IMG/VR virus record: IMGVR_UViG_3300002898_000054
Location: 1-30,364 of that record
Length of the DNA stretch: 30,364 nt
Reading direction: 5' to 3' (one strand)
DNA from: a virus
Below, in pieces: positions 6,023 to 30,364 of this stretch; within the stretch, counting starts at the first letter, position 1, and the number at the start of each line of letters is the position of its first letter. Under the pieces are notes generated by a model that was not told where the DNA came from, did not search any database, and was given only the letters and a program-made list of their open reading frames with translations. Position numbers and translations under genes: made by a program.

Positions 6023-6217
6023 ATGAAAATCTTAAAAAACGGACATGAGTATAATGTTACAAATAAAAATGTAATTGAACAAATGTTGAAATATGGTGGC
6101 GTAAAGATTGAGGAAGAAGTTATAAAAGAAGTAAAAAAAGAAGTAAAAAAAGAAGTAAAAAAAGAAGTAAAAACCGAAACTAAGAAAGCACCAGCAAACA
6201 CAACAAAGAAGAAATAA
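6023..6217 (+). CDS. small Lys-rich protein with KEVK repeats (head-associated?)
   Basis: 64 aa behind an AGAGG RBS. The C-terminal half reads (KEVK)n...KKAPANTTKKK. It lies between the capsid and connector genes. Confidence 0.55.
   Translation: MKILKNGHEYNVTNKNVIEQMLKYGGVKIEEEVIKEVKKEVKKEVKKEVKTETKKAPANTTKKK
6125..6172 (+). repeat. perfect 12-bp tandem repeat aaagaagtaaaa x4
   Basis: Read directly from the sequence. It encodes KEVKKEVKKEVKKEVK. Confidence 0.95.
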
Positions 6218-9216: not shown

Positions 9217-11319
9217 ATGGCAGACTTTAAAGTTATAGGAAATACAGAGTTAAATACCGATGGCGTACAAACCGGAATGCAGAAAGTTGGATCCATAGCA
9301 AAAAAAGGCTTTGGGATCGCAGCAGGGGCAACGGTTGCAGCGACAGCAGCGGTTGTTGGTTTGACTAAAGCGGCGATTAGTTCTTATGCAGACTACGAAC
9401 AATTGACCGGTGGAGTTGAAACACTTTTCAAGGAAAGCAGCGTTGATTTAATAGCCTATGCGAAAGACGCTTACGTTACCGCCGGTATGTCTTCGAATAA
9501 ATACATGGAAATTGTAACGGGCTTTTCGGCTTCGTTGCTACAAAGTTTAGAGGGAGACACAGCAGCCGCAGCAGAAAAAGCAGATCAAGCAATGGTTGAC
9601 ATGTCAGATAATGCAAATAAAATGGGAACCAGCATGGAAAGTATTACTAACACTTATCAAGGGTTTGCAAAGCAAAATTTTACAATGCTAGACAATTTGA
9701 AATTAGGGTATGGAGGAACGAAAACAGAAATGCAAAGATTGCTTGCCGACGCAAGCGCAATTTCCGGGATCGATTACGACATTTCTTCTTATGCAGATAT
9801 AGTAGACGCAATTCACACCGTACAAACGGAAATGAATATAACCGGGACAACAGCATTGGAAGCTTCCACGACAATTTCGGGATCCTTTACTTCAATGTCA
9901 GCAGCTTGGGCCAACCTACTAACCGGAATGGCGGATCCATCACAAAGCATTGAGAATTTGATTGGCGACTTTGTCGGAACAGTAGAAACTTTCGCAGATA
10001 ATTTAATTCCGGTAATAGCTTCGACGTTGCCGAAGATCGTTTCGGGTATAGGATCAATTGTAAATCAATTGGCCGCAAATATCCCGGCAATTTTAGCAGA
10101 ACTATTGCCAGCATTTGTTGAGAGTATAAATTCATTAGTTACAACTTTAGCAGAAAACTTACCGGCGATTTTACAAATATTTGTCGATATGATCCCACAA
10201 ATTATTGATGTAATTATTACCGTATTACCTTTATTAGTGAAAGCCGGAATTGACATTGTGGTTAGTTTGATTAAAGGATTGGCAGCAGCATTGCCGGATC
10301 TAATACCAACTATGGTTACAGCACTTTTGGACGTGATCGACGCAATAATTGAAAATTTAGACGTTTTCATTGAAGCGGGAATAAGTATTATACTAGGTTT
10401 GGTAGATGGTTTAATTCAAGCAATCCCAGTTATAATTGAAGCGTTGCCTAGAATTATAGGAAGTATTATAACAGCAGTTATCGAAGCCATACCACTTTTA
10501 ATCGAGGGTGCAATTGCTCTTGTTCTTGGTTTAGTCCAGGCATTGCCACTTATCATTATGGCATTAGTCCAGGCATTACCAACGATAATCATTGCAGTTG
10601 TTGAGGGGTTAGTAAACGCAATCCCAATTTTAATACAAGGTGCTATTGCTTTAATAATGGGGTTAGTTGAGGCATTACCACTTATCATTATGGCGTTAAT
10701 CGAAGCAATCCCACTTATTATTACATCAGTAATTGAGGCACTAATAACAGCAATTCCAATGTTAATTAAAGGTGCAATCGAACTTGTTATCGGAATAGTT
10801 AAAGCACTCCCACAGATTATTCTAGCACTAATTAAAGCAATTCCTACAATTATAGTTGCTATTATCGAAGCATTTGCAAGCATGGGAACAGACTTCAAAA
10901 ATATGGGAACAGATTTAGTTGTCGGATTGTGGAATGGTTTAAAAGAAAAATGGGAATGGTTAAAGGATAAAGCAAAAGAACTTGCGACAGGATTGATTGA
11001 CGGTTTCAAGGGTATTTTTGGGATAGAAAGTCCATCAAAAGAGTTTGCTTGGATTGGCAAAATGAACATGGAGGGATTGGAAAAAGGAATGGAAGACAAC
11101 AACCCTTTCGACCAAATGAAACAAAACCTAAAGGCTGGACTAGGAAGTCTACAAAATGTTATGCAACTTGAACTGAACGGAAGCGTAAGAGAAAATTCAG
11201 CAGTTGCCGGAACGAGTGGAAGCATAATAAATAACTTTTACGATACACAAACAAGTCCTGATGCAATTGCAAGGACGGTAGGAAAGACCATGACGTTTGG
11301 TCTAGCGAGGGCATTTTAA
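9217..11319 (+). CDS. tape measure protein
   Basis: 700 aa and the largest gene. It has an N-terminal helical region and a long central ALPxIIxALxxAIP hydrophobic repeat region. Synteny supports the call. Confidence 0.9.
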   Translation: MADFKVIGNTELNTDGVQTGMQKVGSIAKKGFGIAAGATVAATAAVVGLTKAAISSYADYEQLTGGVETLFKESSVDLIAYAKDAYVTAGMSSNKYMEIVTGFSASLLQSLEGDTAAAAEKADQAMVDMSDNANKMGTSMESITNTYQGFAKQNFTMLDNLKLGYGGTKTEMQRLLADASAISGIDYDISSYADIVDAIHTVQTEMNITGTTALEASTTISGSFTSMSAAWANLLTGMADPSQSIENLIGDFVGTVETFADNLIPVIASTLPKIVSGIGSIVNQLAANIPAILAELLPAFVESINSLVTTLAENLPAILQIFVDMIPQIIDVIITVLPLLVKAGIDIVVSLIKGLAAALPDLIPTMVTALLDVIDAIIENLDVFIEAGISIILGLVDGLIQAIPVIIEALPRIIGSIITAVIEAIPLLIEGAIALVLGLVQALPLIIMALVQALPTIIIAVVEGLVNAIPILIQGAIALIMGLVEALPLIIMALIEAIPLIITSVIEALITAIPMLIKGAIELVIGIVKALPQIILALIKAIPTIIVAIIEAFASMGTDFKNMGTDLVVGLWNGLKEKWEWLKDKAKELATGLIDGFKGIFGIESPSKEFAWIGKMNMEGLEKGMEDNNPFDQMKQNLKAGLGSLQNVMQLELNGSVRENSAVAGTSGSIINNFYDTQTSPDAIARTVGKTMTFGLARAF
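10486..10872 (+). repeat. three tandem ~132-bp (44-codon) repeats inside the tape measure gene
   Basis: Units start at 10486, 10618 and 10750, each opening with AIP(L/I/M)LI(E/Q/K)GAI. Weaker related ~11-residue repeats lie upstream. Confidence 0.85.
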
Positions 11320-16176: not shown

Positions 16177-16185
16177 CACATTTCA

Positions 16186-16226: not shown

Positions 16227-16273
16227 ACCAATAAAACCGTGTAAAGTTTAGTGCTTTTTATGTTCCTTTTGTA

Positions 16274-16301
16274 TTGCTTTCGTATTGCTATATGCTATAA
16301 T
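16274..16301 (+). promoter_or_regulatory. probable promoter (extended -10)
   Basis: TTGCTT, a 16-bp spacer, then TGcTATAAT (TATAAT at 16296-16301). Confidence 0.4.
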
Positions 16302-16339
16302 GGAATTACCAAACAACCACACAAAAAAGGAGGTAACAA

Positions 16340-16549
16340 ATGTATTTAGAAGATTTGCTAGAAACGATATGTGCTTTGCAGATAGTAGAAATCGAAGATA
16401 CAAACGGAAAAGTTTTATATCATGGAGAAAGAAAGAAATTTGAATATTCAGACATGATCCCTTTTTCTGATGATACAGTAACTGGAGTTGCAACAAACCC
16501 AAGAGACGATGTTTTGTATATCGAAGTTGAAGTAACTCATAACATTTAA
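16340..16549 (+). CDS. hypothetical protein
   Basis: 69 aa behind an excellent RBS (AAAGGAGGT). No recognisable motif. Confidence 0.6.
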   Translation: MYLEDLLETICALQIVEIEDTNGKVLYHGERKKFEYSDMIPFSDDTVTGVATNPRDDVLYIEVEVTHNI

Positions 16550-17136: not shown

Positions 17137-17166
17137 TTGACAATGTATTTCATCGTGGCGTATAAT
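17137..17166 (+). promoter_or_regulatory. sigma-A type promoter
   Basis: TTGACA (17137-17142), an 18-bp spacer, then TATAAT (17161-17166). The ORF-track start at 17137 lies inside this promoter. Confidence 0.6.
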
Positions 17167-17190
17167 GTAAATATAGAAAGGAGTGAGAAA

Positions 17191-17343
17191 GTGAGAACAG
17201 ACAAAAGGAAATATACAATGCAGATTTTAAATGAACGAGTGGAAAATATCGATAAGATCGCAAAAGAAAAAGACAGAAGCAGACAGTATTTAGTCGGAGT
17301 AGCAATTGAAGAATATTGCAAACGAGAAAGTGAGAAGAAATAA
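17191..17343 (+). CDS. ribbon-helix-helix (CopG/Arc-like) DNA-binding protein
   Basis: GTG 17191 lies 7 nt after AAAGGAG. The 50-aa product has a KRKYTMQILNERVENIDKIAKEKDRSRQYLVGVAIEEY strand-helix-helix pattern. Confidence 0.6.
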   Translation: MRTDKRKYTMQILNERVENIDKIAKEKDRSRQYLVGVAIEEYCKRESEKK

Positions 17344-19743: not shown

Positions 19744-19819
19744 AAAATTATGGTCTATATTTACAAAAGATATGGATACGTGTATCTATACAGGTTCTAT
19801 CCAAGTGGAACTTACATAA
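19736..19819 (+). pseudogene. 27-codon 5' remnant of a Cys/His nuclease-like gene (paralogous to 20435..20731)
   Basis: AAAGGAG, 6 nt, then TTG 19736 gives the same RBS geometry as the intact copy. It encodes MAKKLWSIFTKDMDTCIYTGSIQVELT* and aligns to ...DDMRYCLVCGSPYPEVHH, ending just before the His-His motif. Confidence 0.5.
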
Positions 19820-19840
19820 CAAACATATTGATGGTATAAT
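19811..19840 (+). promoter_or_regulatory. possible promoter (extended -10) for the homing endonuclease gene
   Basis: CTTACA, an 18-bp spacer, then TGgTATAAT (TATAAT at 19835-19840). Confidence 0.35.
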
Positions 19841-19845
19841 GATCT

Positions 19846-19931
19846 CATAGGTGTGCGAGATCTATACAAACTTTAATTTGCTGATTACCATCATGGGACC
19901 AATGTATGCACTCGCACTGTATACACCTATG
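19846..19931 (+). other. long-range stem structure in the leader upstream of the HNH gene
   Basis: CATAGGTGT-GCGAG (19846-19859) is complementary to CTCGC (19911-19915) and ACACCTATG (19923-19931). It is followed by GTGGTTTTTATAATTT. Confidence 0.45.
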
Positions 19932-19959
19932 GTGGTTTTTATAATTTAAAGGAGAAATA

Positions 19960-20475
19960 ATGAAAGAAAAATGGAAGAAGATTGACGGATATGATGGAGG
20001 CTATGAAATTTCTAATCTTGGCAGAGTAAAAAGTATGTGGAGATTCAGGAGTTTGCACGGTAAAATTGTTAGGGTTAGCAAAGAACACATGATGACGCTA
20101 TCAGACAATGGAAATGGGTATTTAATTGTTTCATTGAAAAATAACAATGCAAGAAAAAATTATTATGTTCACAGGCTTGTGGCAACTTATTTTCTGAAAG
20201 AAATAGATGGTAAAAATGTTGTTAATCATATTGACTATAACAAAAAGAATAATAATGTATTAAATTTAGAATGGTGTACTCAATTAGAAAACACTAGACA
20301 TTCTATAAAAAATATGAAGAAAAAGGGAACAAGAACTGAAAATATACCATATATAAGAGATCGTGGATCCAGATTTGAGATTTGCATCAAACAAAAATAT
20401 TATGGTAGGTTTAAAACTTTAGAGGAGGCTATCGTTGAAAAAAGAAAAATACTTAAAGAACTCAATTATTATTGA
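19960..20475 (+). CDS. HNH homing endonuclease (NUMOD4 + HNH_3 type)
   Basis: N-terminal WKKIDGYDGGYEISNLGRVKS (NUMOD4) followed by NGYLIVSLKNNNARKNYYVHRLVATYF...VNHIDYNKKNNNVLNLEWCTQLEN (HNH_3). RBS is AAAGGAG. Confidence 0.85.
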   Translation: MKEKWKKIDGYDGGYEISNLGRVKSMWRFRSLHGKIVRVSKEHMMTLSDNGNGYLIVSLKNNNARKNYYVHRLVATYFLKEIDGKNVVNHIDYNKKNNNVLNLEWCTQLENTRHSIKNMKKKGTRTENIPYIRDRGSRFEICIKQKYYGRFKTLEEAIVEKRKILKELNYY

Positions 20476-22332: not shown

Positions 22333-22358
22333 AAGACATCAGAAATGGTGTCTTTTTT
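22333..22358 (+). terminator. rho-independent terminator
   Basis: AAGACATCA-GAAA-TGGTGTCTT hairpin (9 bp, one G-U pair, GAAA loop) followed by a T-run. Confidence 0.75.
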
Positions 22359-22395
22359 GTATGCAAATAAAAACAATAAAAATACAATTTAAGTG

Positions 22396-22424
22396 TTGAC
22401 GTGACACGTGCCATGTGGTATACT
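22396..22424 (+). promoter_or_regulatory. strong promoter (module A), paralogous to 29061..29089
   Basis: TTGACG, a 17-bp spacer, then TGgTATACT. The flanks and downstream leader are nearly identical to the 29055-29119 region. Confidence 0.65.
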
Positions 22425-22467
22425 TTACTTAGAAGTTAAGAAAACCAAGCACACAGGAGGAAACACA

Positions 22468-23100
22468 ATGAACAATTTTAGAAAGTACTGTCCTAATGTA
22501 TGGATAGCAGAATGCGAAGAAGAATACGAAAAAGGAGATATTATACAACTTGAAACAAAGTATGGAAAAGAAGTTGATTGCGAAGTTTATAACTTAGTTT
22601 TGGAATCTAATGAAAAATATTTTTACTCTATCATAAAAATAGAAGAAAAAACATATGCAGAAAGAAAAGCAGAAAAATATAGTAACGCAATGACTAATAG
22701 TATAAAAAAAAGTAATGAGAAGATGAACGCAGCACAAGAAGGAAGGGAATTTTTATCACTAGCAGAACCAATAAAAATAGGGCATCATAGTGAGGGGAGG
22801 CACAGAGCGTTAATAGAAAGAAATAATGGAAGAATGGAAAAGTCAATGGAATATTACAACAAAGCAGAAGAACAAAAACAAAAAGCAGAATATTGGGAAG
22901 AAAAATCAAAAGATATAACACTTGCTATGCCTTGTAGCTTAGAATATTTTCAACGTAAATTAGAAAAAGCAATTATATATCACAAAGGATTAAAAGATGG
23001 AACTATTGAGAAAGAGCATTCATACTCTTTAACATATGCTAAAAAAGATGTAAATGAGTTAAAAAAGAAAGTAAAAATAGCAAATTTACTTTGGGAATAA
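22468..23100 (+). CDS. DUF3560-like protein
   Basis: ATG 22468 follows CAGGAGG; the ORF-track start at 22408 lies inside the promoter. The 210-aa product has an IKIGHHSEGRHRALIERN motif typical of DUF3560. Confidence 0.6.
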   Translation: MNNFRKYCPNVWIAECEEEYEKGDIIQLETKYGKEVDCEVYNLVLESNEKYFYSIIKIEEKTYAERKAEKYSNAMTNSIKKSNEKMNAAQEGREFLSLAEPIKIGHHSEGRHRALIERNNGRMEKSMEYYNKAEEQKQKAEYWEEKSKDITLAMPCSLEYFQRKLEKAIIYHKGLKDGTIEKEHSYSLTYAKKDVNELKKKVKIANLLWE

Positions 23101-23110
23101 AACAAAAAGT

Positions 23111-23133
23111 TTGGCGGTAAACCTAAACCGCTA
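23111..23133 (+). other. conserved stem-loop (module A copy)
   Basis: TTGGCGG, a 10-nt loop (TAAACCTAAA), then CCGCTA. There is no U-tract. Its paralogue is at 29174-29197. Confidence 0.45.
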
Positions 23134-23147
23134 GAAAGCGAGGGAAA

Positions 23148-23360
23148 ATGAGCAGTTTTACATTAGCGTCAATTATCAATTCAAGGCGAGTAAATGTTGG
23201 ATTAACACAAGAAGAACTAGCAGAGAAAGTGGGAACAGTCAGAACAACAGTTACAAAGTGGGAAAATGGAACAAGAGAACCAAGTTGGAGTAATTTCGTT
23301 AAGTTATGTGAAGTATTATCACTAGAAGTAAATGACTTTTTAGAAAAGGAGGAAATTTAG
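23148..23360 (+). CDS. XRE-family HTH regulator (Cro/Aca-like), paralogue of 29517..29735
   Basis: 70 aa with a GLTQEELAEKVGTVRTTVTKWENG HTH_3 motif. Confidence 0.8.
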   Translation: MSSFTLASIINSRRVNVGLTQEELAEKVGTVRTTVTKWENGTREPSWSNFVKLCEVLSLEVNDFLEKEEI

Positions 23361-23542: not shown

Positions 23543-24316
23543 GTGGTGGACATTATCGCAGAACGCAGAATGTTTGCAAAAAAGATTACAGAAAGTGACG
23601 CATTTCTTGATATGTCAATGAGCGCACAAGCATTATATTTTCATTTGAACATGGCAGCAGACGATGACGGATTTGTAAATAATCCAAAGAAAATAATTAG
23701 AATGATCAATGCAAATGATGATGATTTTAAAAATTTAATAATGAAATCGTTTATCATATCATTTGAGAATGGAATCATAGTTATTAAACATTGGAAGATG
23801 CACAACTATATTCAGAAAGACAGATATAAGCCTACTGATTATTTAGAAGAAAAAGAAATGCTTGAAATCAAGGGAAACAAGGCATATACACTAGGAAATA
23901 ACACAATGTATACAGAATGTATACAAGATGTATCCGTAGGTAAGGTAAGAGAAGAGGAGGTAAGGTTAGTTAAGGTAAGTGAAGAAGAGGTAAGAGAAGA
24001 TAAGAGTAAGAAAAATACTATTGATTATCAAATGATAATCGACCAATACAACAAACGTTGTTCCAAACTTCCAACATTACAAAAACTTACGGACAAACGA
24101 AAAACATCAATGCGAACATTCTTAAATGATTATACTTTTGATGAAATGCTAGAAGTATTTGACAGAGCAAATGAAAGTGAGTTCCTGACGAACGGAACAT
24201 GGTCTTGCAATTTTGACTGGATCATAAATAAAAACAACGCAGCGAAAATATTGGAGGGTAACTATAAAAACAACAAGCAAACAGAATCCAAGTCCATAGG
24301 ATTTATGGATTCTTAA
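23543..24316 (+). CDS. replisome organizer (Phage_rep_org_N; SPP1 G38P-like)
   Basis: The N-terminus ERRMFAKKITESDAFLDMSMSAQALYFHLNMAADDDGFVNNPKKI is diagnostic. There is an internal DNA repeat region. Confidence 0.8.
   Translation: MVDIIAERRMFAKKITESDAFLDMSMSAQALYFHLNMAADDDGFVNNPKKIIRMINANDDDFKNLIMKSFIISFENGIIVIKHWKMHNYIQKDRYKPTDYLEEKEMLEIKGNKAYTLGNNTMYTECIQDVSVGKVREEEVRLVKVSEEEVREDKSKKNTIDYQMIIDQYNKRCSKLPTLQKLTDKRKTSMRTFLNDYTFDEMLEVFDRANESEFLTNGTWSCNFDWIINKNNAAKILEGNYKNNKQTESKSIGFMDS
23906..24010 (+). repeat. iteron-like repeats inside the replisome organizer gene (candidate origin)
   Basis: ATGTATAC(A) occurs at 23906 and 23917 and ATGTATCC at 23928, an 11-bp phasing. GGTAAG then recurs at 23944, 23959, 23974 and 23989, forming two ~30-bp units. 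Confidence 0.6.
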
Positions 24317-24326
24317 AGGAGAGAGT

Positions 24327-24557
24327 ATGAATGTAGGGTTAGGAGAAGTTTGCGATAAAGAAATTATAAGTGTTCTTTTTGCAGACAATACAATATTTAA
24401 CACGCCATTTATAGTTTTGGGGAACAAAGGAATTGATAAAATTTTATATCATGAACCTAATGGAGATGGAGATAAACATTTTGTAGATGTTTTTTCAGAC
24501 AACAGAAGAATAAGAATGTTTAATATGGTTTCGATAGAATTCGAGGAGAATAAATGA
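24327..24557 (+). CDS. hypothetical protein
   Basis: 76 aa behind an AAAGGAGAG RBS. Confidence 0.55.
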   Translation: MNVGLGEVCDKEIISVLFADNTIFNTPFIVLGNKGIDKILYHEPNGDGDKHFVDVFSDNRRIRMFNMVSIEFEENK

Positions 24558-25144
24558 CAAGAGAAGAAGTCCAAACATTACTTACAAGATTATTTACACT
24601 ATATCCACTAAGTTTTAGCAAACTAACGCAATCCGAAAAGTCCGTAACAGTAGATTCGTGGTATATGTTCCTAGAAGAATATGAGAATGATGATATTGTA
24701 ACAGCCCTTAGAATTGCTGTAAAAGGGAATAACAGTGGTTTTGCACCAACAGTAGGGGAAATCATAGACAAACTAGGAACAGTGGCAGAATACAAGCAAA
24801 TTAGCGAGCCTGAGGCATGGGATATGGTAAACATAGCATTAAGAAGTAGCAGCCGAAACGCACGAGAAAGTTTTGACAATTTCCCTGATGAAGTAAAAGA
24901 CGCAGTGAGAAGCCCTAGCCAATTAATTATGTGGGGGCATACAAGTCTTGAAATGATTGAAACATCAGTAAGAAAAACATTCCGTGAAGCATATGAAAAC
25001 GCTTGCAAGAGAAGAAAAGAGTTTGGAAAGTTGCCTAAAGAAGTGAAAGCATTGATAAACAATGAAAAGCAAGCACCTAGAATTGAACAGCCTAAATATG
25101 ACATTAAGAAATTAACAGATGAAGCATTAAGTAAGTTACATTAA
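24554..25144 (+). CDS. helicase loader-like protein (SPP1 G39P family N-terminal domain)
   Basis: MTREEVQTLLTRLFTLYPLSF...VDSWYMFLEEYENDDIVTALRIAV...APTVGEII matches the G39P-type pattern. It follows the replisome organizer. Confidence 0.6.
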   Translation: MTREEVQTLLTRLFTLYPLSFSKLTQSEKSVTVDSWYMFLEEYENDDIVTALRIAVKGNNSGFAPTVGEIIDKLGTVAEYKQISEPEAWDMVNIALRSSSRNARESFDNFPDEVKDAVRSPSQLIMWGHTSLEMIETSVRKTFREAYENACKRRKEFGKLPKEVKALINNEKQAPRIEQPKYDIKKLTDEALSKLH

Positions 25145-25145
25145 G

Positions 25146-25193
25146 GGTGGAGATACAATAAAAAAATTAAAAAGCAAAATAGGAGGAAAAGAA
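25146..25193 (+). repeat. 48-bp perfect direct repeat, copy 1 (intergenic)
   Basis: ggtggagatacaataaaaaaattaaaaagcaaaataggaggaaaagaa is identical to 26155-26202. Confidence 0.95.
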
Positions 25194-25195
25194 AA

Positions 25196-25492
25196 ATGAA
25201 AAAATTTATAGGAAAAAAGGTAATAATTAGAGCAGACAGAGCAGGTGTGTTTTTTGGAACATTATCAGAAAAAGATGAGCGAGAAGTTGTATTAAAAGAT
25301 TGCAGAAGAATTTTTTACTGGGATGGTGCTGCTAGTATTTCACAACTAGCGAAAGATGGAACATCTAAACCAGAAAATTGCAAATTTACAGTAATTGTTG
25401 ATGAAATTCAAATAATGGGTGTTATTGAAATTATCCCATGCACAGAAAAAGCAATTAAATCTATTGAGGGGGTTAATATATGGATAAAATAG
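25196..25492 (+). CDS. conserved phage protein of unknown function
   Basis: 98 aa. The RBS is supplied by repeat copy 1. The pattern is IIRADRAGVFFGTL...RRIFYWDGAASISQLAKDG...CKF...IIPCTEKA. Confidence 0.6.
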   Translation: MKKFIGKKVIIRADRAGVFFGTLSEKDEREVVLKDCRRIFYWDGAASISQLAKDGTSKPENCKFTVIVDEIQIMGVIEIIPCTEKAIKSIEGVNIWIK

Positions 25493-26205
25493 AAAAATTT
25501 TTGAAAGTTGTCGATGGCTATGGCGATGGCGATGGCTCTGGCGATGGCTCTGTCTATGGCGATGGCTCTGGCTATGGCTCTGTCTATGGCTATGGCGATG
25601 GCGATGGCTCTGTCTGTGGCCCTGGCAATGGATCTGGCTCTGGCTATGGCTATGGCTCTGGCGATGGCGATGGCTCTGGCTATGGCTCTGGCTATGGCGA
25701 TGGCGATGGCTATGGCTCTGGCTATGGCGATGGAATTAAAGAGTTCAACAAAATAAAAATTTTTAATATTGACGGTGTTCAAACTGGAATTAAGCAAATT
25801 AAAGGAAATGTAGCATTTGGGTTTATATTGAACAATGATTTTACAACAACAAAATGTTATACCGTAAAACAAAACAATTTATTTGCACATGGAAAAACAA
25901 TTCGTGAAGCAATGAACGCTCTATCAGGAAAACTTTTTAACGATATGCCAGAAGTCGAAAGGATAGAAAAATTTATTGAATATTTCACAGACATTAAAAA
26001 AGAATATCCATGCTTAGAATTTTATGAGTGGCATCATAAACTGACTGGATCATGTGACATAGGAAGAAAATCATTTGCAGAAAACAACGATATAAATATT
26101 GAAACAGACAAAATGACAGTTTTTGAATTTATTAAACTAACTGAAAATCAGTATGGTGGAGATACAATAAAAAAATTAAAAAGCAAAATAGGAGGAAAAG
26201 AATGA
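25480..26205 (+). CDS. protein with N-terminal Gly/Asp/Ser/Tyr repeat region and a globular C-terminal domain of unknown function
   Basis: 241 aa. Residues ~12-85 are (G-D/S/Y)n repeats. The C-terminal domain contains AHGKTIREAMNAL and WHHKLTGSCDIGRKSF. Confidence 0.65.
   Translation: MDKIEKFLKVVDGYGDGDGSGDGSVYGDGSGYGSVYGYGDGDGSVCGPGNGSGSGYGYGSGDGDGSGYGSGYGDGDGYGSGYGDGIKEFNKIKIFNIDGVQTGIKQIKGNVAFGFILNNDFTTTKCYTVKQNNLFAHGKTIREAMNALSGKLFNDMPEVERIEKFIEYFTDIKKEYPCLEFYEWHHKLTGSCDIGRKSFAENNDINIETDKMTVFEFIKLTENQYGGDTIKKLKSKIGGKE
25513..25734 (+). repeat. degenerate hexanucleotide coding repeat (ggc-gat / ggc-tct / ggc-tat)
   Basis: 222 bp built almost entirely from GGC/GGA plus GAT/TCT/TAT codons. 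Confidence 0.9.
26155..26202 (+). repeat. 48-bp perfect direct repeat, copy 2 (coding 3' end of 25480..26205)
   Basis: Identical to 25146-25193. Here it encodes GGDTIKKLKSKIGGKE. Confidence 0.95.
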
Positions 26206-26327
26206 GTGCAGCAATTATAGTATTATTAGTAATATTAGTTTTAATGACAACAAGTGTGCATATGAAAGTAGCAATATTAGAAACACAAATAAAGAATCTG
26301 CAAAGGAGAAATGATGGAGTTTGAAAA
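26202..26327 (+). CDS. small single-pass membrane protein (41 aa, not in ORF track)
   Basis: ATGA overlap with the upstream stop, and the RBS comes from repeat copy 2. The product is MSAAIIVLLVILVLMTTSVHMKVAILETQIKNLQRRNDGV. Confidence 0.45.
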
Positions 26328-26535
26328 TTCAATAGAAAGTATGATTGCAAATTTCCCAATAAACACAAAAGTAGAATGGACTGAATGTATAGGGGATAAA
26401 GAAATAATAGTAACGGATATTGTAGACGGCTATTCCACAGTAGGAAACGTGTGCAACGTGGTTTTAAAGGAAAACGGGAGAGTGAGTTACAAGGGATTGT
26501 TTGTTGCGACAGAAAAACATAAGGAGAACAAATGA
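26311..26535 (+). CDS. hypothetical protein
   Basis: 74 aa behind an AAAGGAGA RBS. Confidence 0.55.
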   Translation: MMEFENSIESMIANFPINTKVEWTECIGDKEIIVTDIVDGYSTVGNVCNVVLKENGRVSYKGLFVATEKHKENK

Positions 26536-26750
26536 GAGAAGAAGCAGAGTGTATATCCGACAGATTTGAACGAGCCGAAGAAGAAAAAGAAAGGAGAAGA
26601 AACAAAATGTTAAAATGTGATATTTGTTTAGATCCGATAGAAACAGAAAAGTATTACGAATTTAAGAATGAAAAATATTGCGAAATGTGTTGGGAAGATT
26701 TTAGTTTGGAATGTGAAAGACAGAACTTATTTGAAGAAGAAGAATTTTAA
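26532..26750 (+). CDS. small zinc-ribbon-like protein
   Basis: It has CDIC...CEMC cysteine pairs. The start is either ATG 26532 (ATGA overlap) or ATG 26607 (after AAAGGAGA). Confidence 0.5.
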   Translation: MREEAECISDRFERAEEEKERRRNKMLKCDICLDPIETEKYYEFKNEKYCEMCWEDFSLECERQNLFEEEEF

Positions 26751-26820
26751 CCGAAGCAGGAGGAGAAAGAATGAACTTAATTGAATTTACAGGAGAAGAA
26801 CTTGATGGAGAAAAAGAGTA

Positions 26821-27039
26821 ATGCGATATGGACTAATACTTAAAAGCGGAGAATCACTAACAGTTCATTACGAAAAAGATATTGGGAATCTACAACAAGA
26901 ACTAGAAAAAGCAAAATGGATATCGTTTGACCTGTGTGGAACAACAACATTCCAAGCAGGAGAGGAAGGAAAAGCAGTATTCATTAAGAACTTATTACTT
27001 AGTGATTCAATAGAAAGCATTTACTACGAAGAAAAATAA
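26821..27039 (+). CDS. hypothetical protein
   Basis: 72 aa. The start overlaps the stop of a 16-codon upstream mini-ORF (TAATG). Confidence 0.5.
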   Translation: MRYGLILKSGESLTVHYEKDIGNLQQELEKAKWISFDLCGTTTFQAGEEGKAVFIKNLLLSDSIESIYYEEK

Positions 27040-27073
27040 TAGATGGTTTACATAATTAATAAAAAGGAGGAGA

Positions 27074-27709
27074 ATGATGAAAGTATTAGAACTTTTTGCA
27101 GGAACAAAGTCGATAGGAAAAGAGTTTGAGAAAAAAGGGCATGAAGTGTTTTCTGTTGAGTGGAGCAAGGATTTTGAAAACATTGATATGTATGTTGATA
27201 TATCAGAACTAAAAGCAAAACAGATAATGAAAAAGTTTGGAAAACCTGATATAGTTTGGGCAAGTCCTGATTGCACAACATATTCCATAGCAGCAATATC
27301 ACACCACAGAACAAAATCGGAAAGTGGAAATCTTGATCCTAAAAGTGAATATGCAAAGTTTTGCGATAAAACAAATAAGCACGTTTTAGATTTAATACAA
27401 GAATTAAAACCTAAGTATTATTTTATTGAAAACCCAAGAGGTGCAATGAGGAAAATGGACTTCATGAAAGGTCTGTATAGATATACAGTAACTTATTGTC
27501 AATACGGAGACACGAGAATGAAACCGACGGATATATGGACAAACCACCCAAATCCAAGTTTTAAGCCTATGTGTCATAACGGAGACAGTTGTCATATATC
27601 AGCACCACGAGGAAGTAAAACTGGAACGCAGGGTTTAAAAGGAAGCAAAGAGCGTTCAATAATTCCACAGAAATTGTGCGAACATATTGTAGAAATAAGT
27701 GAGGAATGA
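27074..27709 (+). CDS. orphan DNA (cytosine-5) methyltransferase, compact phage type
   Basis: Motif I is LELFAGTKS, motif IV-like is ASPDCTTYS (catalytic Cys), motif VI is ENPRG, and the C-terminus has RSIIPQKL. No adjacent restriction endonuclease. Confidence 0.7.
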   Translation: MMKVLELFAGTKSIGKEFEKKGHEVFSVEWSKDFENIDMYVDISELKAKQIMKKFGKPDIVWASPDCTTYSIAAISHHRTKSESGNLDPKSEYAKFCDKTNKHVLDLIQELKPKYYFIENPRGAMRKMDFMKGLYRYTVTYCQYGDTRMKPTDIWTNHPNPSFKPMCHNGDSCHISAPRGSKTGTQGLKGSKERSIIPQKLCEHIVEISEE

Positions 27710-27727
27710 ATTATAAACAAAAGGAGA

Positions 27728-28177
27728 ATGATGATAAAAGATAGTGGAGAGCGTACAACATTTAAGACAGGTGCAAAAAGAGACGTGCAAAAAGGTAAAG
27801 GAAGAAATGATCTAATGCCATTGATAGAACTAGGTGCAGTATTAAATGATGAAATAGTTTTATCAGTAGGAGAGTATAACAAAAATAGAAAACTGTCAGT
27901 ATTAGTGAATACATTGAAAATATACATTGAAAAATACATGATGTATAAAACCGAATATGAAATGGCAATTGATTTATCGAAACACTTTGAAAACGGTGCG
28001 AAGAAGTATGGCGAGAGGAATTGGGAAAAAGGAATACCAAAAGAAAGATATGTAGATAGTGCAATCCGTCACTACTTAAAATTCAGAGACGGACAAGAAG
28101 ACGAAAACCACGAAATCGCATTTGTTTGGAATGTAATTTGTTTGATGTGGACAGAGAATAAGGAGAAAGAAGAATGA
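27728..28177 (+). CDS. MazG-like nucleotide pyrophosphohydrolase (DUF5664 / dATP-dGTP diphosphohydrolase-type domain)
   Basis: The pattern is KGKGRNDLMP...HFENGAKKYGERNWEKGIP...AIRHYLKFRDGQEDENHEIAFVWNVICL. Confidence 0.6.
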   Translation: MMIKDSGERTTFKTGAKRDVQKGKGRNDLMPLIELGAVLNDEIVLSVGEYNKNRKLSVLVNTLKIYIEKYMMYKTEYEMAIDLSKHFENGAKKYGERNWEKGIPKERYVDSAIRHYLKFRDGQEDENHEIAFVWNVICLMWTENKEKEE

Positions 28178-28341
28178 ACGTGAGTAAAATAAGGAGAGAA
28201 ATTAAATTCAGGGCAAAAGGGCAAACGGATAATAATTGGCACTATGGACTTCTTTCCTTTAAAAGTGATACACATTGTAAAATCAAAGAAAGTTCATACA
28301 GAACGTATGTTTGTGATAAAATAAAGGTAGATACAAACTAA
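28174..28341 (+). pseudogene. YopX-like N-terminal fragment (55 codons)
   Basis: REIKFRAKGQTDNNWHYG resembles the start of YopX-family proteins. The ORF stops after about one third of the usual length. Confidence 0.35.
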
Positions 28342-28369
28342 CGCACACACACAGAAAGGAAAAAGAAAA

Positions 28370-28582
28370 ATGATTTTAAAAGTTAAAGAAAATGGAGTAT
28401 TCCTATTTATAGACAAGGTGCTAAGTTGCACAACGTCAGACAAAGAGTTTCATATTGATTATGAAAGAGAATGTAGAAACGGGAAAACTGAATATCTATC
28501 ACTTAACATCAAAGGTAGAGAAGCATATTTGCTAAATGACAATGGTAAAACATTATCTGTACTTAGCAATGAATTGATGTAA
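28370..28582 (+). CDS. hypothetical protein
   Basis: 70 aa behind an AAAGGAAA RBS. Confidence 0.5.
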   Translation: MILKVKENGVFLFIDKVLSCTTSDKEFHIDYERECRNGKTEYLSLNIKGREAYLLNDNGKTLSVLSNELM

Positions 28583-28598
28583 AAGAATAGGAGGAAAA

Positions 28599-28940
28599 AT
28601 GAAAAATAAAGTAAAGGTATTAGGAGTAGAATACAAAATAGAGTATCATAAACTAGAAGACGATAAGAACCTAGAAAAAGCAGACGGATATATGGATAAG
28701 ACAAAGAAGTTGATAGTTGTAGAAAAAGACTTTAATTCAAACTTAGGAAATCCGAAGAACTATGCAGAAAGTATACTAAGACATGAACTAATACACGCAT
28801 TCTTATATGAAAGTGGAATGTCAAGTAGTAGTTTAAACGCAGACGTTGCGTGGGCAATGAATGAAGAAATGGTTGACTGGTTTGCAATACAAAGTCCAAA
28901 GATATTCAAATGTTTTAAAGAATTAGGGATAGAAAAATGA
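28599..28940 (+). CDS. small HExxH zinc-metallopeptidase-like protein
   Basis: 113 aa with ILRHELIHAFLYESG (HExxH). RBS is TAGGAGGA. Confidence 0.55.
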   Translation: MKNKVKVLGVEYKIEYHKLEDDKNLEKADGYMDKTKKLIVVEKDFNSNLGNPKNYAESILRHELIHAFLYESGMSSSSLNADVAWAMNEEMVDWFAIQSPKIFKCFKELGIEK

Positions 28941-29060
28941 TGAATTGATTAAAATAAAAGAATTTATTGAAAAGCAAAGCGAGGAAGAAAAAAGAGGTGG
29001 TCGCAAGGCTGCCTTGTTACTAAAAAAACAATAAAAGTACAATAAAGTTATAAATAAGTG

Positions 29061-29089
29061 TTGACAAGTGTGTAATACAATGATATAAT
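29061..29089 (+). promoter_or_regulatory. strong promoter (module B), paralogous to 22396..22424
   Basis: TTGACA, a 17-bp spacer, then TGaTATAAT, which is consensus at both hexamers plus an extended -10. Confidence 0.7.
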
Positions 29090-29173
29090 TTACTTAGAAG
29101 TTAAGAAAACAAGCACACAAGGAGAACAAAATGAAAGAAATGAATTAAAAGTATTATTTAATTAAATAAAGGG

Positions 29174-29197
29174 TTGGCGGCAATCCATAAACCGCCA
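29174..29197 (+). other. conserved stem-loop (module B copy)
   Basis: TTGGCGG, an 11-nt loop (CAATCCATAAA), then CCGCCA. One G-U pair in copy A is a G-C pair here. Confidence 0.45.
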
Positions 29198-29217
29198 TTA
29201 AACAAGGAGGAAACAAT

Positions 29218-29535
29218 ATGAGAACAGAATATACTGAAATAAGAAATTTAGCATTTATGCTATGGAACGAAGAAATACCTTTTGAAACCCGTTTTATAAT
29301 GAATGGAATGCAAGTAATATATCCAAATAACAATCTAGAAGAAAGAATTTGTGATGCAATAGAGCATGACGGAAGTTACGGAAGAACAGAAGATAAACTT
29401 GAACTTATGGGGTTGCTTACAAGCGAAGAAAGAAAAAATGATAGCGTAGTAGGAAATTTATCAGCACAAGAAGTATTTGATAGAATAAAAAAACATTTTG
29501 AGAGCGAGGGAAAAGAATGGGAAAATACGATATAG
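29218..29535 (+). CDS. orphan 105-aa protein (candidate anti-defence/early effector)
   Basis: It has an AAGGAGGA RBS and no motif I recognise. It is the first real gene behind the consensus promoter and is followed by an overlapping XRE gene. Confidence 0.6.
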   Translation: MRTEYTEIRNLAFMLWNEEIPFETRFIMNGMQVIYPNNNLEERICDAIEHDGSYGRTEDKLELMGLLTSEERKNDSVVGNLSAQEVFDRIKKHFESEGKEWENTI

Positions 29536-29735
29536 CATCAATCATTAAATCAAGAAGAAAAAACATAGGCTTAACACACAGACAGCTAGCCGATAAATTA
29601 GACGTAACAGTTACCACAATTTCAAGGTGGGAAAATGGAGTAAACGAGCCAGACTCTAGCAAGTTTATCAAAATCTGCAAAGTACTAGCGTTAGAAGTAA
29701 ACGACTTTTTAGAAAGCGAGGAAGAAAAAAGATGA
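29517..29735 (+). CDS. XRE-family HTH regulator (Cro/Aca-like), paralogue of 23148..23360
   Basis: 72 aa with a GLTHRQLADKLDVTVTTISRWENG motif. Roughly half its residues are identical to the other XRE by eye, and both share the C-terminal LEVNDFLE. Confidence 0.8.
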   Translation: MGKYDIASIIKSRRKNIGLTHRQLADKLDVTVTTISRWENGVNEPDSSKFIKICKVLALEVNDFLESEEEKR

Positions 29736-29944
29736 ATTGTAAAAAATGTGGAAGTGATAACGTAACAGTACAGTATAGCGAATATGAGAAATCGAAAAGA
29801 AGATCTGTTTTGTGGAACTTGATGATGATACTATTAACTGGTGGTTTTTGGATTGTTTGGATATTGCTAAGAAACAAAAAGACAAAGACAGTTAAAAACA
29901 AATATGCACTATGTCAGGATTGTGGAAATAGTTGGAAGTTATAA
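29732..29944 (+). CDS. zinc-ribbon membrane protein
   Basis: 70 aa: CKKCG, then a TM segment (LWNLMMILLTGGFWIVWILL), then CQDCG. It has an ATGA overlap with the XRE gene. Confidence 0.55.
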   Translation: MNCKKCGSDNVTVQYSEYEKSKRRSVLWNLMMILLTGGFWIVWILLRNKKTKTVKNKYALCQDCGNSWKL

Positions 29945-29988
29945 GTTTGCAATATGCAGATAGTAGTTGTATAATTAAAGGGAGGTAT

Positions 29989-30117
29989 ATGAAAAAGGTT
30001 TCCAGTATTCCAAATATAGAGGACAGAAAGTCGCAGCAACCTCCTTTCAAAAAAAATAAAAGTTGTGGCTTTGCTGTCTGTTTGAAAAAGGCAATCAATA
30101 AAATAAAAGATACATAG
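29989..30117 (+). CDS. small basic protein (42 aa)
   Basis: ATG 29989 follows AAGGGAGG; the ORF-track start at 29932 lacks an RBS. Confidence 0.4.
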   Translation: MKKVSSIPNIEDRKSQQPPFKKNKSCGFAVCLKKAINKIKDT

Positions 30118-30140
30118 AGAGTTAACGCTCTCTATTTGTG
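30114..30140 (+). terminator. possible terminator / hairpin before the packaging genes
   Basis: ATAGAGAG-TTAACG-CTCTCTAT hairpin followed by a weak TTGTGT tail. Confidence 0.4.
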
Positions 30141-30159
30141 TATAGAAAAGGAGTAGCAG

Positions 30160-30364
30160 ATGGCGAGAGTATCAATATACGATCAATGGAAAGAAGACGA
30201 TGAACTAGAAAACATATTGATTAAACTTGAAGGGTGGGCAAGGCAAGGACTAAGCCAACCACAACTATCTAAAAACTTGGGTATATCACTTAAAACGTTC
30301 CAACAGAACATGAAAAGGTATCTACCATTTCGCCAAGCAGTAAAAAAGGGGAAGGAAGTTGCAG
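30160..30364 (+). CDS. terS: terminase small subunit, N-terminal part (continues at base 80 of the window after the duplicated 79 bp)
   Basis: AAAAGGAG, 6 nt, then ATG 30160. The product begins MARVSIYDQWKEDDELENILIKLEGWARQGLSQPQLSKNLGISLKTFQQ (HTH). It is in frame with 1..390 and gives 171 aa in total. Confidence 0.8.
   Translation, partial: MARVSIYDQWKEDDELENILIKLEGWARQGLSQPQLSKNLGISLKTFQQNMKRYLPFRQAVKKGKEVA
30286..30364. repeat. 79-bp exact repeat of bases 1-79 (circular-closure overlap)
   Basis: Direct comparison of both window ends. Confidence 0.95.

Follow-up and report, generated by a model that had tools for sequence, protein, structure and literature searches.

In T4-type phages, modular shuffling is mediated by repeated units that lie next to ORFans and are known as promoter(early) stem-loops (PeSLs); between a stop codon and a start codon, such a unit contains an AT-rich tract, a sigma-70 promoter, a stem-loop and a Shine-Dalgarno sequence (SD) (Arbiol et al. 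2010, PMC2839356; Comeau et al. 2014, PMC4122927). PeSLs are the closest described system to a scaffold that occurs twice, as modules A and B, in the stretch of viral DNA analyzed here (IMG/VR record IMGVR_UViG_3300002898_000054, positions 1 to 30,364; 30,364 nucleotides (nt), hereafter the window). Each module combines a terminator-like hairpin, a promoter, a leader, an intercistronic GC-rich motif and a gene for a small XRE-type regulator, with slots between these parts that can hold accessory genes. The favored interpretation, held with moderate confidence, is that modules A and B are diverged copies of one scaffold for early transcription, which in this phage lineage stands at operon heads, is tuned by its XRE products and has its cargo exchanged at the junctions.

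As in PeSLs, the units of the window lie between a stop codon and the next SD and start codon, and are composites of an AT-rich tract, an early promoter of the sigma-70 type and a GC-rich stem-loop. They adjoin ORFans or accessory genes, and close relatives differ by insertions, deletions or replacements; in the case of the window and its sibling contig L318 the ends lie at gene boundaries. The window promoters also have the PeSL promoter features, namely TTGACG or TTGACA, a 17-nt spacer, a TG-extended TATACT or TATAAT, and an A-rich tract upstream. PeSLs, however, number ~50 per genome and occupy hyperplastic regions of large myoviruses, whereas the window carries two leaders, two motifs and three promoters with the shared -35 flank. 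The PeSL stem-loop is a tested terminator located in or next to the promoter; in the window the terminator, the promoter and the motif are separate elements, and the motif has no U-tract. Unlike a PeSL, the window scaffold includes a regulator gene, and the ends of the replacement that distinguishes the window from L318 follow the same principle as PeSL shuffling but with a different repeat.

Other known systems resemble single parts of the scaffold. Like Cro-type regulators and the C proteins of restriction-modification systems, the window XREs are HTH_3 proteins of 70-72 amino acids (aa) encoded at the 5' end of a presumed target operon, but a divergent CI gene, an integrase and identified operator repeats are absent here, and two paralogues head co-directional operons. 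Nor is this a lambda-type switch: all convincing genes lie on one strand, and Pfam found no integrase, CI-type repressor or peptidase-S24 repressor among the open reading frames (ORFs) scanned between 16340 and 30117. The two cargo genes, one encoding a DUF3560 protein and the other a 105-aa protein, are like morons in being dispensable, in occurring in many unrelated contexts and in taking different positions in near-identical phages; classical morons, however, have their own promoter and terminator, whereas the window cargo borrows the scaffold promoter and is bounded by SD junctions and the motif. In Cluster K mycobacteriophages, short conserved motifs, the start-associated and extended start-associated sequences, lie in a single orientation just upstream of some start codons and have no known function; the window motif is unrelated to them in sequence, belongs to phages of a different host phylum, shows helix covariation and recurs in several unrelated phages. 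Structured intercistronic elements that direct mRNA processing or stabilization include the RNase III sites of T7 and SP82 and the RNase Y site, with its 5' stem-loop, of Bacillus subtilis cggR-gapA. The motif is similarly placed between cistrons of early polycistronic mRNAs, with A/U-rich sequence upstream and the next SD downstream, but its helix is much shorter than an RNase III substrate requires. Integron-type cassettes were considered and set aside: no recombinase gene was found by Pfam among the window ORFs scanned, and the resemblance is topological only. A duplicated promoter with a Cro-like regulator is ordinary phage biology and mosaicism, and the motif is the most original part of the locus.

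Two paralogous promoter-regulator modules

All features described here lie on the + strand. Module A begins with a predicted intrinsic terminator (22333-22354; a 9-bp stem followed by TTTTTTG; RNAfold dG -13.1, z -5.9), which by the terminator scan closes the upstream recombination/SSB operon and stands directly before promoter A. An A-rich, UP-like tract follows (AAAAACAATAAAAATACAAT, 22369-22388), common by alignment to module B and to the relative L156, and then promoter A itself (22390-22424), which consists of the flank TAAGTGTTGAC, the -35 hexamer TTGACG, a 17-nt spacer and the TG-extended -10 hexamer TATACT (TTGACG-17-TGgTATACT, 22396-22424). Leader A (22425-22467) opens with TTACTTAGAAGTTAAGAAAAC (about -6 to +15, identical in B), continues with CAAGCACACA and ends in the SD GGAGG, and its 5' untranslated region (UTR) is predicted to be unstructured (dG -0.2). 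The corresponding terminator-like hairpin of module B (28994-29015) would close operon A; its core is GGTGGTC-GCAA-GGCTGCC (28997-29014), to which the fold adds one pair on each side (RNAfold dG -11.7, z -2.4), and its T-tract, TTGTTAC, is weak. L156 is 95% identical to module B over this terminator and the UP tract, and has a proper T-run there. Next come UP-like tract B (AAAAACAATAAAAGTACAAT, 29024-29043), whose exact version is also found in L001/L156, and promoter B (29055-29089), in which the flank TAAGTGTTGAC adjoins a perfect TTGACA-17-TGaTATAAT (29061-29089; 12 of 12 consensus positions, with the TG present). Leader B (29090-29130) has a +1 region identical to that of A, followed by CAAGCACACA and the SD AAGGAG.

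Both module promoters are near-consensus promoters of the extended -10, sigma-70 type, and each lies directly 3' of a terminator-like hairpin situated 40-45 nt upstream of the -35. The flank TAAGTGTTGAC is identical at 11 of 11 positions (22390-22400 and 29055-29065), and the tract AAAAACAATAAAARTACAAT is common to the A-rich stretches upstream of the two -35 hexamers. The 22-nt leader tttacttagaagttaagaaaac, which starts at the last base of the -10, is identical at 22424-22445 and 29089-29110, and both 5' UTRs end in CAAGCACACA followed by GGAG and ATG. A 21-mer of the leader has exactly two matches in the window even when three mismatches are allowed, and two matches arose in none of 100 shuffles; BLASTN of the window against itself aligns the promoter blocks at 78% over 112 nt (22366-22472 with 29030-29135). 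The 17-nt promoter spacers, in contrast, are unrelated between A and B, while the -35 flank, the -10 and the 22-nt block are kept. An earlier note, made by eye from the DNA, had listed the promoters, leaders, motif copies, XRE genes, DUF3560 gene, mini-ORF and 105-aa gene; all of them are present where it placed them, and its view of the modules as true paralogues is upheld by a similarity that goes far beyond a promoter or ribosome-binding site (RBS) consensus.

If transcription starts ~7 nt after the -10 (near 22431 and 29096), the identical block would extend from about -6 to +15. This block includes the pseudo-palindrome TTACTT-AG-AAGTTAA (about -6 to +10), which would be the best candidate operator for XRE A and XRE B. 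The -35 flank, also proposed as a shared feature of the modules, is indeed identical in A and B, but it is not specific to them: it recurs, as AAATAAGTRTTGACAA, at a third strong promoter (17137-17166).

That third promoter (region 17137-17343) has the perfect consensus TTGACA-18-TATAAT and is followed by an ORF of ~41 aa (ATG at 17218), whose product looks by eye like a small ribbon-helix-helix DNA-binding protein and has no Pfam match. The region seems to be a third operon that opens with a small DNA-binding protein. At 16270-16340, a promoter-like TTGCTT..TGcTATAAT follows the terminator at 16184, and its CA-rich leader ACCAAACAACCACACAAAAAAGGAGG resembles CAAGCACACA-GGAG. The window phage seems to favor CA-rich leaders ahead of strong SDs.

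The regulator genes bear on the age of the two copies. XRE A (70 aa, 23148-23360; Pfam HTH_3, PF01381, E 2.8e-13) is Cro/C-protein-like; XRE B comprises 72 aa (29517-29735; PF01381, E 2.9e-15). Both are single-domain proteins with HTH_3 scores above the gathering score, and both match PHROG transcriptional repressor/regulator families and PADLOC 'control protein' models. The proteins, earlier judged roughly half identical by eye, are 57% identical as measured. Their genes align codon by codon without gaps at 65% nt identity (69% over 194 nt by BLASTN), with 49% identity at third codon positions and the same codon at 22 of the 39 identical residues. The distance between XRE A and XRE B matches that to the XREs of L156 and L320 (54-60% identity), a finding at odds with a recent within-genome duplication. 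Because the spacers are scrambled while their flanks are identical, and because third-codon identity is 49%, the evidence points to old paralogous copies under constraint. A recent copy or a conversion tract is unlikely, since either would have carried the spacer along. In searches with the XRE alignment, matches in GTDB genomes reached at most 38% identity, all in metagenome-assembled genomes of Clostridia/Bacillota, and three informative matches (L206-L208) were obtained in metagenome contigs. BLASTN of modules A and B against 50,697 GenBank phages returned no match.

Cargo genes and their boundaries in related phages

Slot 1 of module A, between the leader and the motif, holds the gene for the 210-aa DUF3560 protein (22468-23100; PF12083 E 1.9e-28, with 99.5 bits against a gathering score of 27.2; phrog_17519 E 2.8e-85), a protein with 3047 homologues in many contexts. 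In module B the same slot contains a five-codon ORF, MKEMN* (29131-29148), which may most simply be read as the chassis start codon left without cargo, and slot 2 holds the gene for the 105-aa protein (29218-29535), which overlaps the start of XRE B by 19 nt. The 105-aa protein has no Pfam, PHROG, PADLOC or PDB match and the DUF3560 protein no PDB or PADLOC match. Homologues of the 105-aa protein are few (P0004-P0006, at 54-56%); in L213, a homologue is likewise followed by an overlapping HTH_3 gene.

Two further ideas about module B were tried. Alignment of its 45-nt gap with the DUF3560 gene was uninformative as to whether the module is a deletion remnant of that gene, which is possible, if unproven. 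Leader-peptide attenuation by MKEMN* was rejected, as the stop codon lies 26 nt from the motif, too far for coupling.

Boundaries within the modules are marked by a short junction word, AGCGAGGRA, which occurs four times in the window, always within the two modules, against 0.28 expected, and which by its position acts as the SD of the following gene. It precedes XRE A (GAAAGCGAGGGAAA, 23134-23147) and XRE B (AGCGAGGGA, 29503-29511), and forms the 3' end of XRE B, where AGCGAGGAA (29715-29723) is the SD for the next gene. The fourth copy, again AGCGAGGAA, lies in non-coding DNA (28978-28986) and reads like a relic of an XRE 3' end (..SEEEKR). The word is also found at gene boundaries in L156, L208, L318 and L320.

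Four other metagenomic contigs (L156, L206, L208 and L320) encode an XRE of this family at an identity of at least 48%. In L156 (equivalent to L001/L144/L207; XRE 60% identical) and L208 (48%), a terminator, an extended -10 sigma-70 promoter and a related +1 region are followed directly by the XRE gene, the motif and cargo both being absent between promoter and XRE. The +1 regions of these two contigs, GTTACTTGAAAGG and GTTCCTAGAAAGG respectively, are the only ones related to the window leader. In L156, DUF3560 is the sixth gene of the XRE-headed operon; the replication genes lie behind an unrelated promoter, in an operon that opens with a different ORF, of 57 aa, whose HTH_3 match is weak.

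The full order of parts is found elsewhere with other contents. L320 (ERZ28668902) and L321, retrieved from the protein database of closer DUF3560 homologues, have a terminator, the promoter TTGACA-17-TAATAT, the leader CAAGCAAACA with an SD, a 77-aa ORF, the motif, DUF3560, a second motif, an ORF of ~92 aa, ATAGAAAGCGAGG and an XRE gene whose product is 54-58% identical to XRE A and XRE B; the terminase type of L320 differs from that of the window phage. In L319 (SRR34068986) the order is terminator, promoter, CAAGCAAACAAGGAG, DUF3560, motif, a 52-aa ORF, motif and the next ORF, with 78% nt similarity to the window from 22 nt before the ATG through the motif. The sequence CAAGCAMACA with an SD is also present in L319 and L320. 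The order common to the window and these relatives is terminator, sigma-70 promoter, CA-rich leader with SD, slot 1, motif, slot 2, the junction GAAAGCGAGG and XRE. The suggestion that different payloads occupy the same scaffold is borne out, as L320/L321 and L319 carry other genes in slots 1 and 2, and the ordered parts, leader and hairpin included, do co-occur with variable cargo in these phages.

A contig that borders DUF3560 with a different element deserves separate mention. In L323 (2420-2500, 3134-3190), a different repeated hairpin, AAAACCTAAG...CTTAGGTTTT, stands on either side of the DUF3560 gene, with an SD and ATG after each copy. Hairpins that recur between cistrons next to DUF3560 genes may be a general theme with several sequence families.

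The sibling L318 (ENA ERZ12298798 NODE_844) reveals how cargo turns over. It is 99.0-99.8% identical to the window on both sides of a replacement (window 25755-26776 and 29710-30364). Within the replacement, 0.84 kb comprising a 54-aa ORF, a motif variant and a DUF3560 gene at 84% nt identity takes the place of 2.93 kb of the window (26778-29709) that holds the C5 methylase gene, the dATP/dGTP diphosphohydrolase-like gene, a terminator, promoter B, the mini-ORF, motif copy B, the 105-aa gene and XRE B. As a ~99%-identical sibling does without it, module B is dispensable. The left crossover in L318 reads ..GGAGGAGAAAGAATGAAC and the right one TAGAAAGCGAGGAAGAAAAAAGATG, at window position 29710, where the junction word begins with the stop codon of DUF3560; the crossover points are thus placed to single-base precision. 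Both ends of the replacement fall at SD/ATG junctions (TAGAAAGCGAGG...ATG; GGAGGAGAAAGAATGAAC) and outside the promoters. The comparison shows directly that genes move, by crossover at short conserved RBS/start junctions; the scaffold itself shows no sign of moving.

These comparisons make it improbable that the whole chassis of promoter, leader, hairpin and XRE is a portable cassette that moves as a unit and gains payloads, a strong form of the idea in the earlier note. That proposal would account for the two copies in one 30-kb genome, for the location of module B within 2.9 kb that one of two ~99%-identical phages has and the other lacks, and for the same order of parts in L320 next to a different terminase type. 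The crossovers, however, fall at individual gene boundaries rather than at chassis ends; no recombinase gene was found among the ORFs scanned, and terminal repeats and target duplication are absent. The exact 21-nt leader has no match in the 2.9 million contigs of IMG/VR, nor, at up to five mismatches, in 131 related loci, and is lineage-specific; a scan of IMG/VR for the UP-tract pattern returned the known relative and AT-rich noise only. The parts also separate, as the motif is found without promoter or XRE (L215-L217, L241) and the promoter and XRE are found without the motif (L156, L208). The hairpin, once counted as a chassis component, is an independent motif that lies between unrelated genes far from promoters (L215, L216, L217, L241), and DUF3560 is not tied to the chassis: leader and motif are both missing from each of 51 IMG/VR loci that encode it.

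The intercistronic motif and a proposed mechanism

Motif copy A (GTTTGGCGGTAAACCTAAACCGCTA, 23109-23133) lies 15 nt before the start of XRE A and can be drawn as a hairpin or as a candidate H-type pseudoknot; copy B (GGTTGGCGGCAATCCATAAACCGCCA, 29172-29197) lies 21 nt before the next start codon. The pattern TTGGCGGYAAWCC(N)TAAACCGCYA matches exactly twice in the window (23111-23133 and 29174-29197), against 0.00 expected. Further copies were found by pattern scans of IMG/VR, and a covariance model, R1, was then built from the copies found; it scores copy A at 47.5 bits (RNAfold dG -11.6) and copy B at 45.5 bits, and in 1.25 Mb of other loci it detected the two window copies only. Together, the scans and the model gave 16 instances in 10 contigs, including the window (two), L215 (three), L216, L217 (two), L241 (two), L311, L318, L319 (two) and L320 (two). 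In all 16 the next ATG follows at 13-28 nt and is preceded by an intervening SD, and every copy comes after a stop codon and an A-rich stretch in a single orientation. The flanking genes are unrelated between phages. Successive intergenic gaps carry the motif in L215, L217, L241, L319 and L320.

In three of these contigs small ORFs are bracketed by motif copies ~200-335 nt apart: L215 (reverse-complement 9656, 9959 and 10257), L241 (5323 and 5658) and L319 (4647 and 4855). Such bracketing copies would allow excision or duplication by homologous recombination.

The 16-sequence alignment fits a two-helix model in which helix S1 pairs GGUU with AACC of the loop and helix S2 pairs GGCGG with CCGCC; together they would form an H-type pseudoknot. 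Under this model pairing is seen in 90% of cells, both partners differ at four pairs (G-C to A-U, U-A to A-U, C-G to G-C and G-C to A-U), and the pairing values are reached by 0-1 of 500 shuffles, with all slid controls far lower. Most likely, the motif is a separate cis-element acting as a small structured RNA, with a GC stem of 5-6 bp and a second helix of 4 bp. By analogy with known mRNA biology in Bacillota, the best guess is that it would serve the cistron that follows, either in mRNA processing or 5' stabilization or in the control of translation. An RNA role is favored over one in duplex DNA because of a U-U variant, the compensatory changes, and the fixed orientation and start-codon distance.

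The motif is hardly likely to be a double-stranded DNA site, whether an XRE operator or a recombination hot spot or crossover site. Its TGGCGG...CCGCCA inverted repeat is of a size bound by helix-turn-helix dimers, it adjoins XRE genes in the window and in L320, and it lies at cassette boundaries where recombination evidently occurs. Most copies, however, have no adjacent XRE (L216, L217, L241, L319), and the half-sites are separated by anything between 7 and 11 nt. In the variant TTGTCGG...CCGTCA, both arms change to T on the same strand, which breaks a DNA dyad and gives U-U in RNA. The compensatory changes (C-G to G-C in the third L215 copy, L215c; G-C to A-U in the second L217 copy, L217b) keep pairing rather than a fixed sequence. 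The strict orientation and ATG distance likewise point to a role in mRNA.

The motif seems to be undescribed and is absent from Rfam: a search of the whole window against Rfam 15 gave no match at E<=1, short stretches scored at best 16-18 bits against thresholds of 41-150, and the motif sites of eight relatives gave nothing. Two 16-bit matches at copy B, to 'DUF2815 RNA' and 'CRISPR-DR7', were rejected as chance. A 33-nt motif query against GenBank phages returned chance matches only, the best of them inside unannotated DNA that reads as coding. Mimicry of a solitary CRISPR repeat was considered (GTTT...GAAAG ends; ATAAACCG resembles a type I-E handle) and rejected, as the 3' parts are not conserved among copies; to our knowledge, no CRISPR repeat matches the motif. 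A reading as a minus-strand terminator was also rejected: minus-strand genes are absent and the T-run does not abut the stem.

These elements can be assembled into a mechanism for the favored interpretation, a scaffold duplicated long ago and placed at operon heads. The terminator hairpin would insulate each copy from the upstream operon, and the A-rich UP-like tract and near-consensus promoter would be read by host RNA polymerase, so that both operons would fire on entry of the DNA into the cell. Ahead of the optional accessory genes, the transcripts would carry a conserved initial region and a 5' UTR that is unstructured, rich in CA and equipped with a strong SD, and the genes in the 5' slots (DUF3560; the 105-aa protein) would be made first and in quantity. 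The XRE products would recognize operator-like sites that are the same in A and B (TTACTT-AG-AAGTTAA, from about -6 to +10, and perhaps the -35 flank) and, by autoregulation, would tune or shut off early transcription. The motif would act on the polycistronic mRNA as a processing or 5'-stabilizer site or in translation control of the downstream cistron. Cargo turnover would proceed by inter-phage recombination at short conserved boundaries (the motif, the word TAGAAAGCGAGG and the SD with its ATG), analogous to PeSL shuffling. This gives a concrete view, open to testing, of the way in which the accessory genes of a small phage join its earliest transcripts and are swapped; the slot position would mark the DUF3560 and 105-aa proteins as first-expressed and as candidates for host takeover or anti-defense.

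A bolder version, offered tentatively and thought rather unlikely, is that the motif is a compact H-type pseudoknot RNA of ~25 nt (GGUUGGCGG-UAAACC-(U)UAAA-CCGCC) that forms a universal cistron front end in low-GC phages, controls processing, stability or translation, and doubles as a homology patch for cargo exchange among phages that are otherwise unrelated. If so, the motif and SD junction would be a Firmicutes-phage counterpart of the PeSL system of T4 with an added RNA function. A functional motif of whatever form would be a new cis-regulatory RNA and could mark cassette boundaries in metagenomic phage genomes.

Several points weigh against the scaffold mechanism. Start sites and operon ends are predictions, and the hairpin before promoter B has a poor T-tract. 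The operator assignment rests on two copies and two distant relatives. The -35 flank also occurs at the third promoter, which has no XRE, and may simply reflect promoter strength; the absence of module B from L318 indicates that XRE B is not essential, and its regulatory role may be minor. Concerning the motif, the minimum free energy fold of copy B favors an alternative helix (GGGUUG/CAAUCC), and the RNAfold z-scores of the single hairpins are modest (-2.3 for copy A, -1.5 for copy B). The covariation of a given pair comes from one or two sequences, the motif itself was the source of the patterns or model by which several instances were found, and five copies have U-U at the fourth pair of the main stem. 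In a stem-free pattern scan outside the family, four-of-four pairing occurred at about chance frequency, and no trans-acting factor for the motif was identified.

It is very improbable that the similarity is a neutral relic, in which a recent segmental duplication or gene-conversion patch copied the promoter and left a likeness with no function beyond it. Phage genomes are mosaic, and this one holds another exact repeat, of 48 nt (25146-25193 and 26155-26202). Conservation between the modules, however, is patchy in the manner of functional sites, with a scrambled spacer between identical flanks, the adjacent coding DNA is near synonymous saturation, and the same blocks are conserved in other phages.

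In lambda, the sites nutL and nutR lie one downstream of each early promoter. A nut/boxB-like role for the motif, with a phage factor that lets polymerase pass terminators (e.g. 30114-30135, before terS), is more doubtful still: although the copies in the window number exactly two, one behind each of the homologous early promoters, and terminator-like hairpins lie downstream, other phages carry two to three copies in successive gaps ~300 nt apart and far from promoters (L215, L217, L241, L319), L318 has a copy without promoter B, the motif is tied to the start codon as nut sites are not, and neither an N-like or Q-like protein nor a boxA was seen.

Genome context and further repeats

The window is a circular phage assembly of ~30,285 bp (positions 1-79 exactly repeat 30286-30364), and Logan assemblies SRR2917896 and SRR2917897 hold the same phage at 100% identity. 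It is a siphovirus-like genome from a low-GC host, with all convincing genes on the + strand, and its terL has no close relative in IMG/VR. The gene for terS runs from 30160 across the junction to 390 and is followed by terL, portal, head and tail genes (391 to ~14.7 kb), and then by holin and endolysin genes (~14.8-16.2 kb) closed by the terminator at 16184. Genes for a cell-wall hydrolase, DUF1351, HNH, RecU and SSB occupy 16.3-22.3 kb. The replication and DNA-modification block (22.4-29.0 kb) includes genes for DnaD-like and G39P-like loader proteins, a C5 methylase and a dATP/dGTP diphosphohydrolase-like protein. Module A heads its replication genes, as identified by PHROG matches (DnaD-like, 23543-24316; G39P-like, 24554-25144). 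Module B heads a short operon in the block before terS (29.0-30.2 kb) and precedes a Zn-ribbon gene and terS.

The 48-nt exact direct repeat, GGTGGAGATACAATAAAAAAATTAAAAAGCAAAATAGGAGGAAAAGAA, lies at gene boundaries. Copy 1 (25146-25193) is non-coding, follows the G39P-like gene and provides the SD of the DUF6948 gene, and copy 2 (26155-26202) encodes the C-terminus GGDTIKKLKSKIGGKE of a 241-aa protein together with the SD of the next gene. The two copies flank a 1009-bp segment that contains DUF6948 and most of the 241-aa gene, and by this arrangement are a further boundary-repeat signature of cassette gain. The 241-aa protein also has a G/Y/D/S-rich low-complexity stretch encoded by in-frame tandem units of 12/18 nt (25473-25760). 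Other in-frame repeats are 12-nt KEVK units in a 64-aa head-region protein (6103-6191) and three 132-nt units in the tape-measure gene (10486-10881).

Two additional structured regions were seen. At 19811-19962, just upstream of the HNH/NUMOD4 endonuclease gene, a promoter-like site with an extended -10 (CTTACA-18-TGgTATAAT) is followed by a strongly structured leader of ~120 nt that ends in a long hairpin and a U-run (dG -37.2, z -5.0) and has no Rfam match; this leader could be an attenuator or a regulatory RNA. Finally, a perfect 9-bp palindromic hairpin (ATAGAGAGTTAACGCTCTCTAT, 30114-30135; dG -12.9, z -3.9) with a weak T-tract lies 25 nt before the terS start and downstream of a promoter-like site at 29946-29975, and could act as a leaky terminator gating the late genes or as a protein-binding site.

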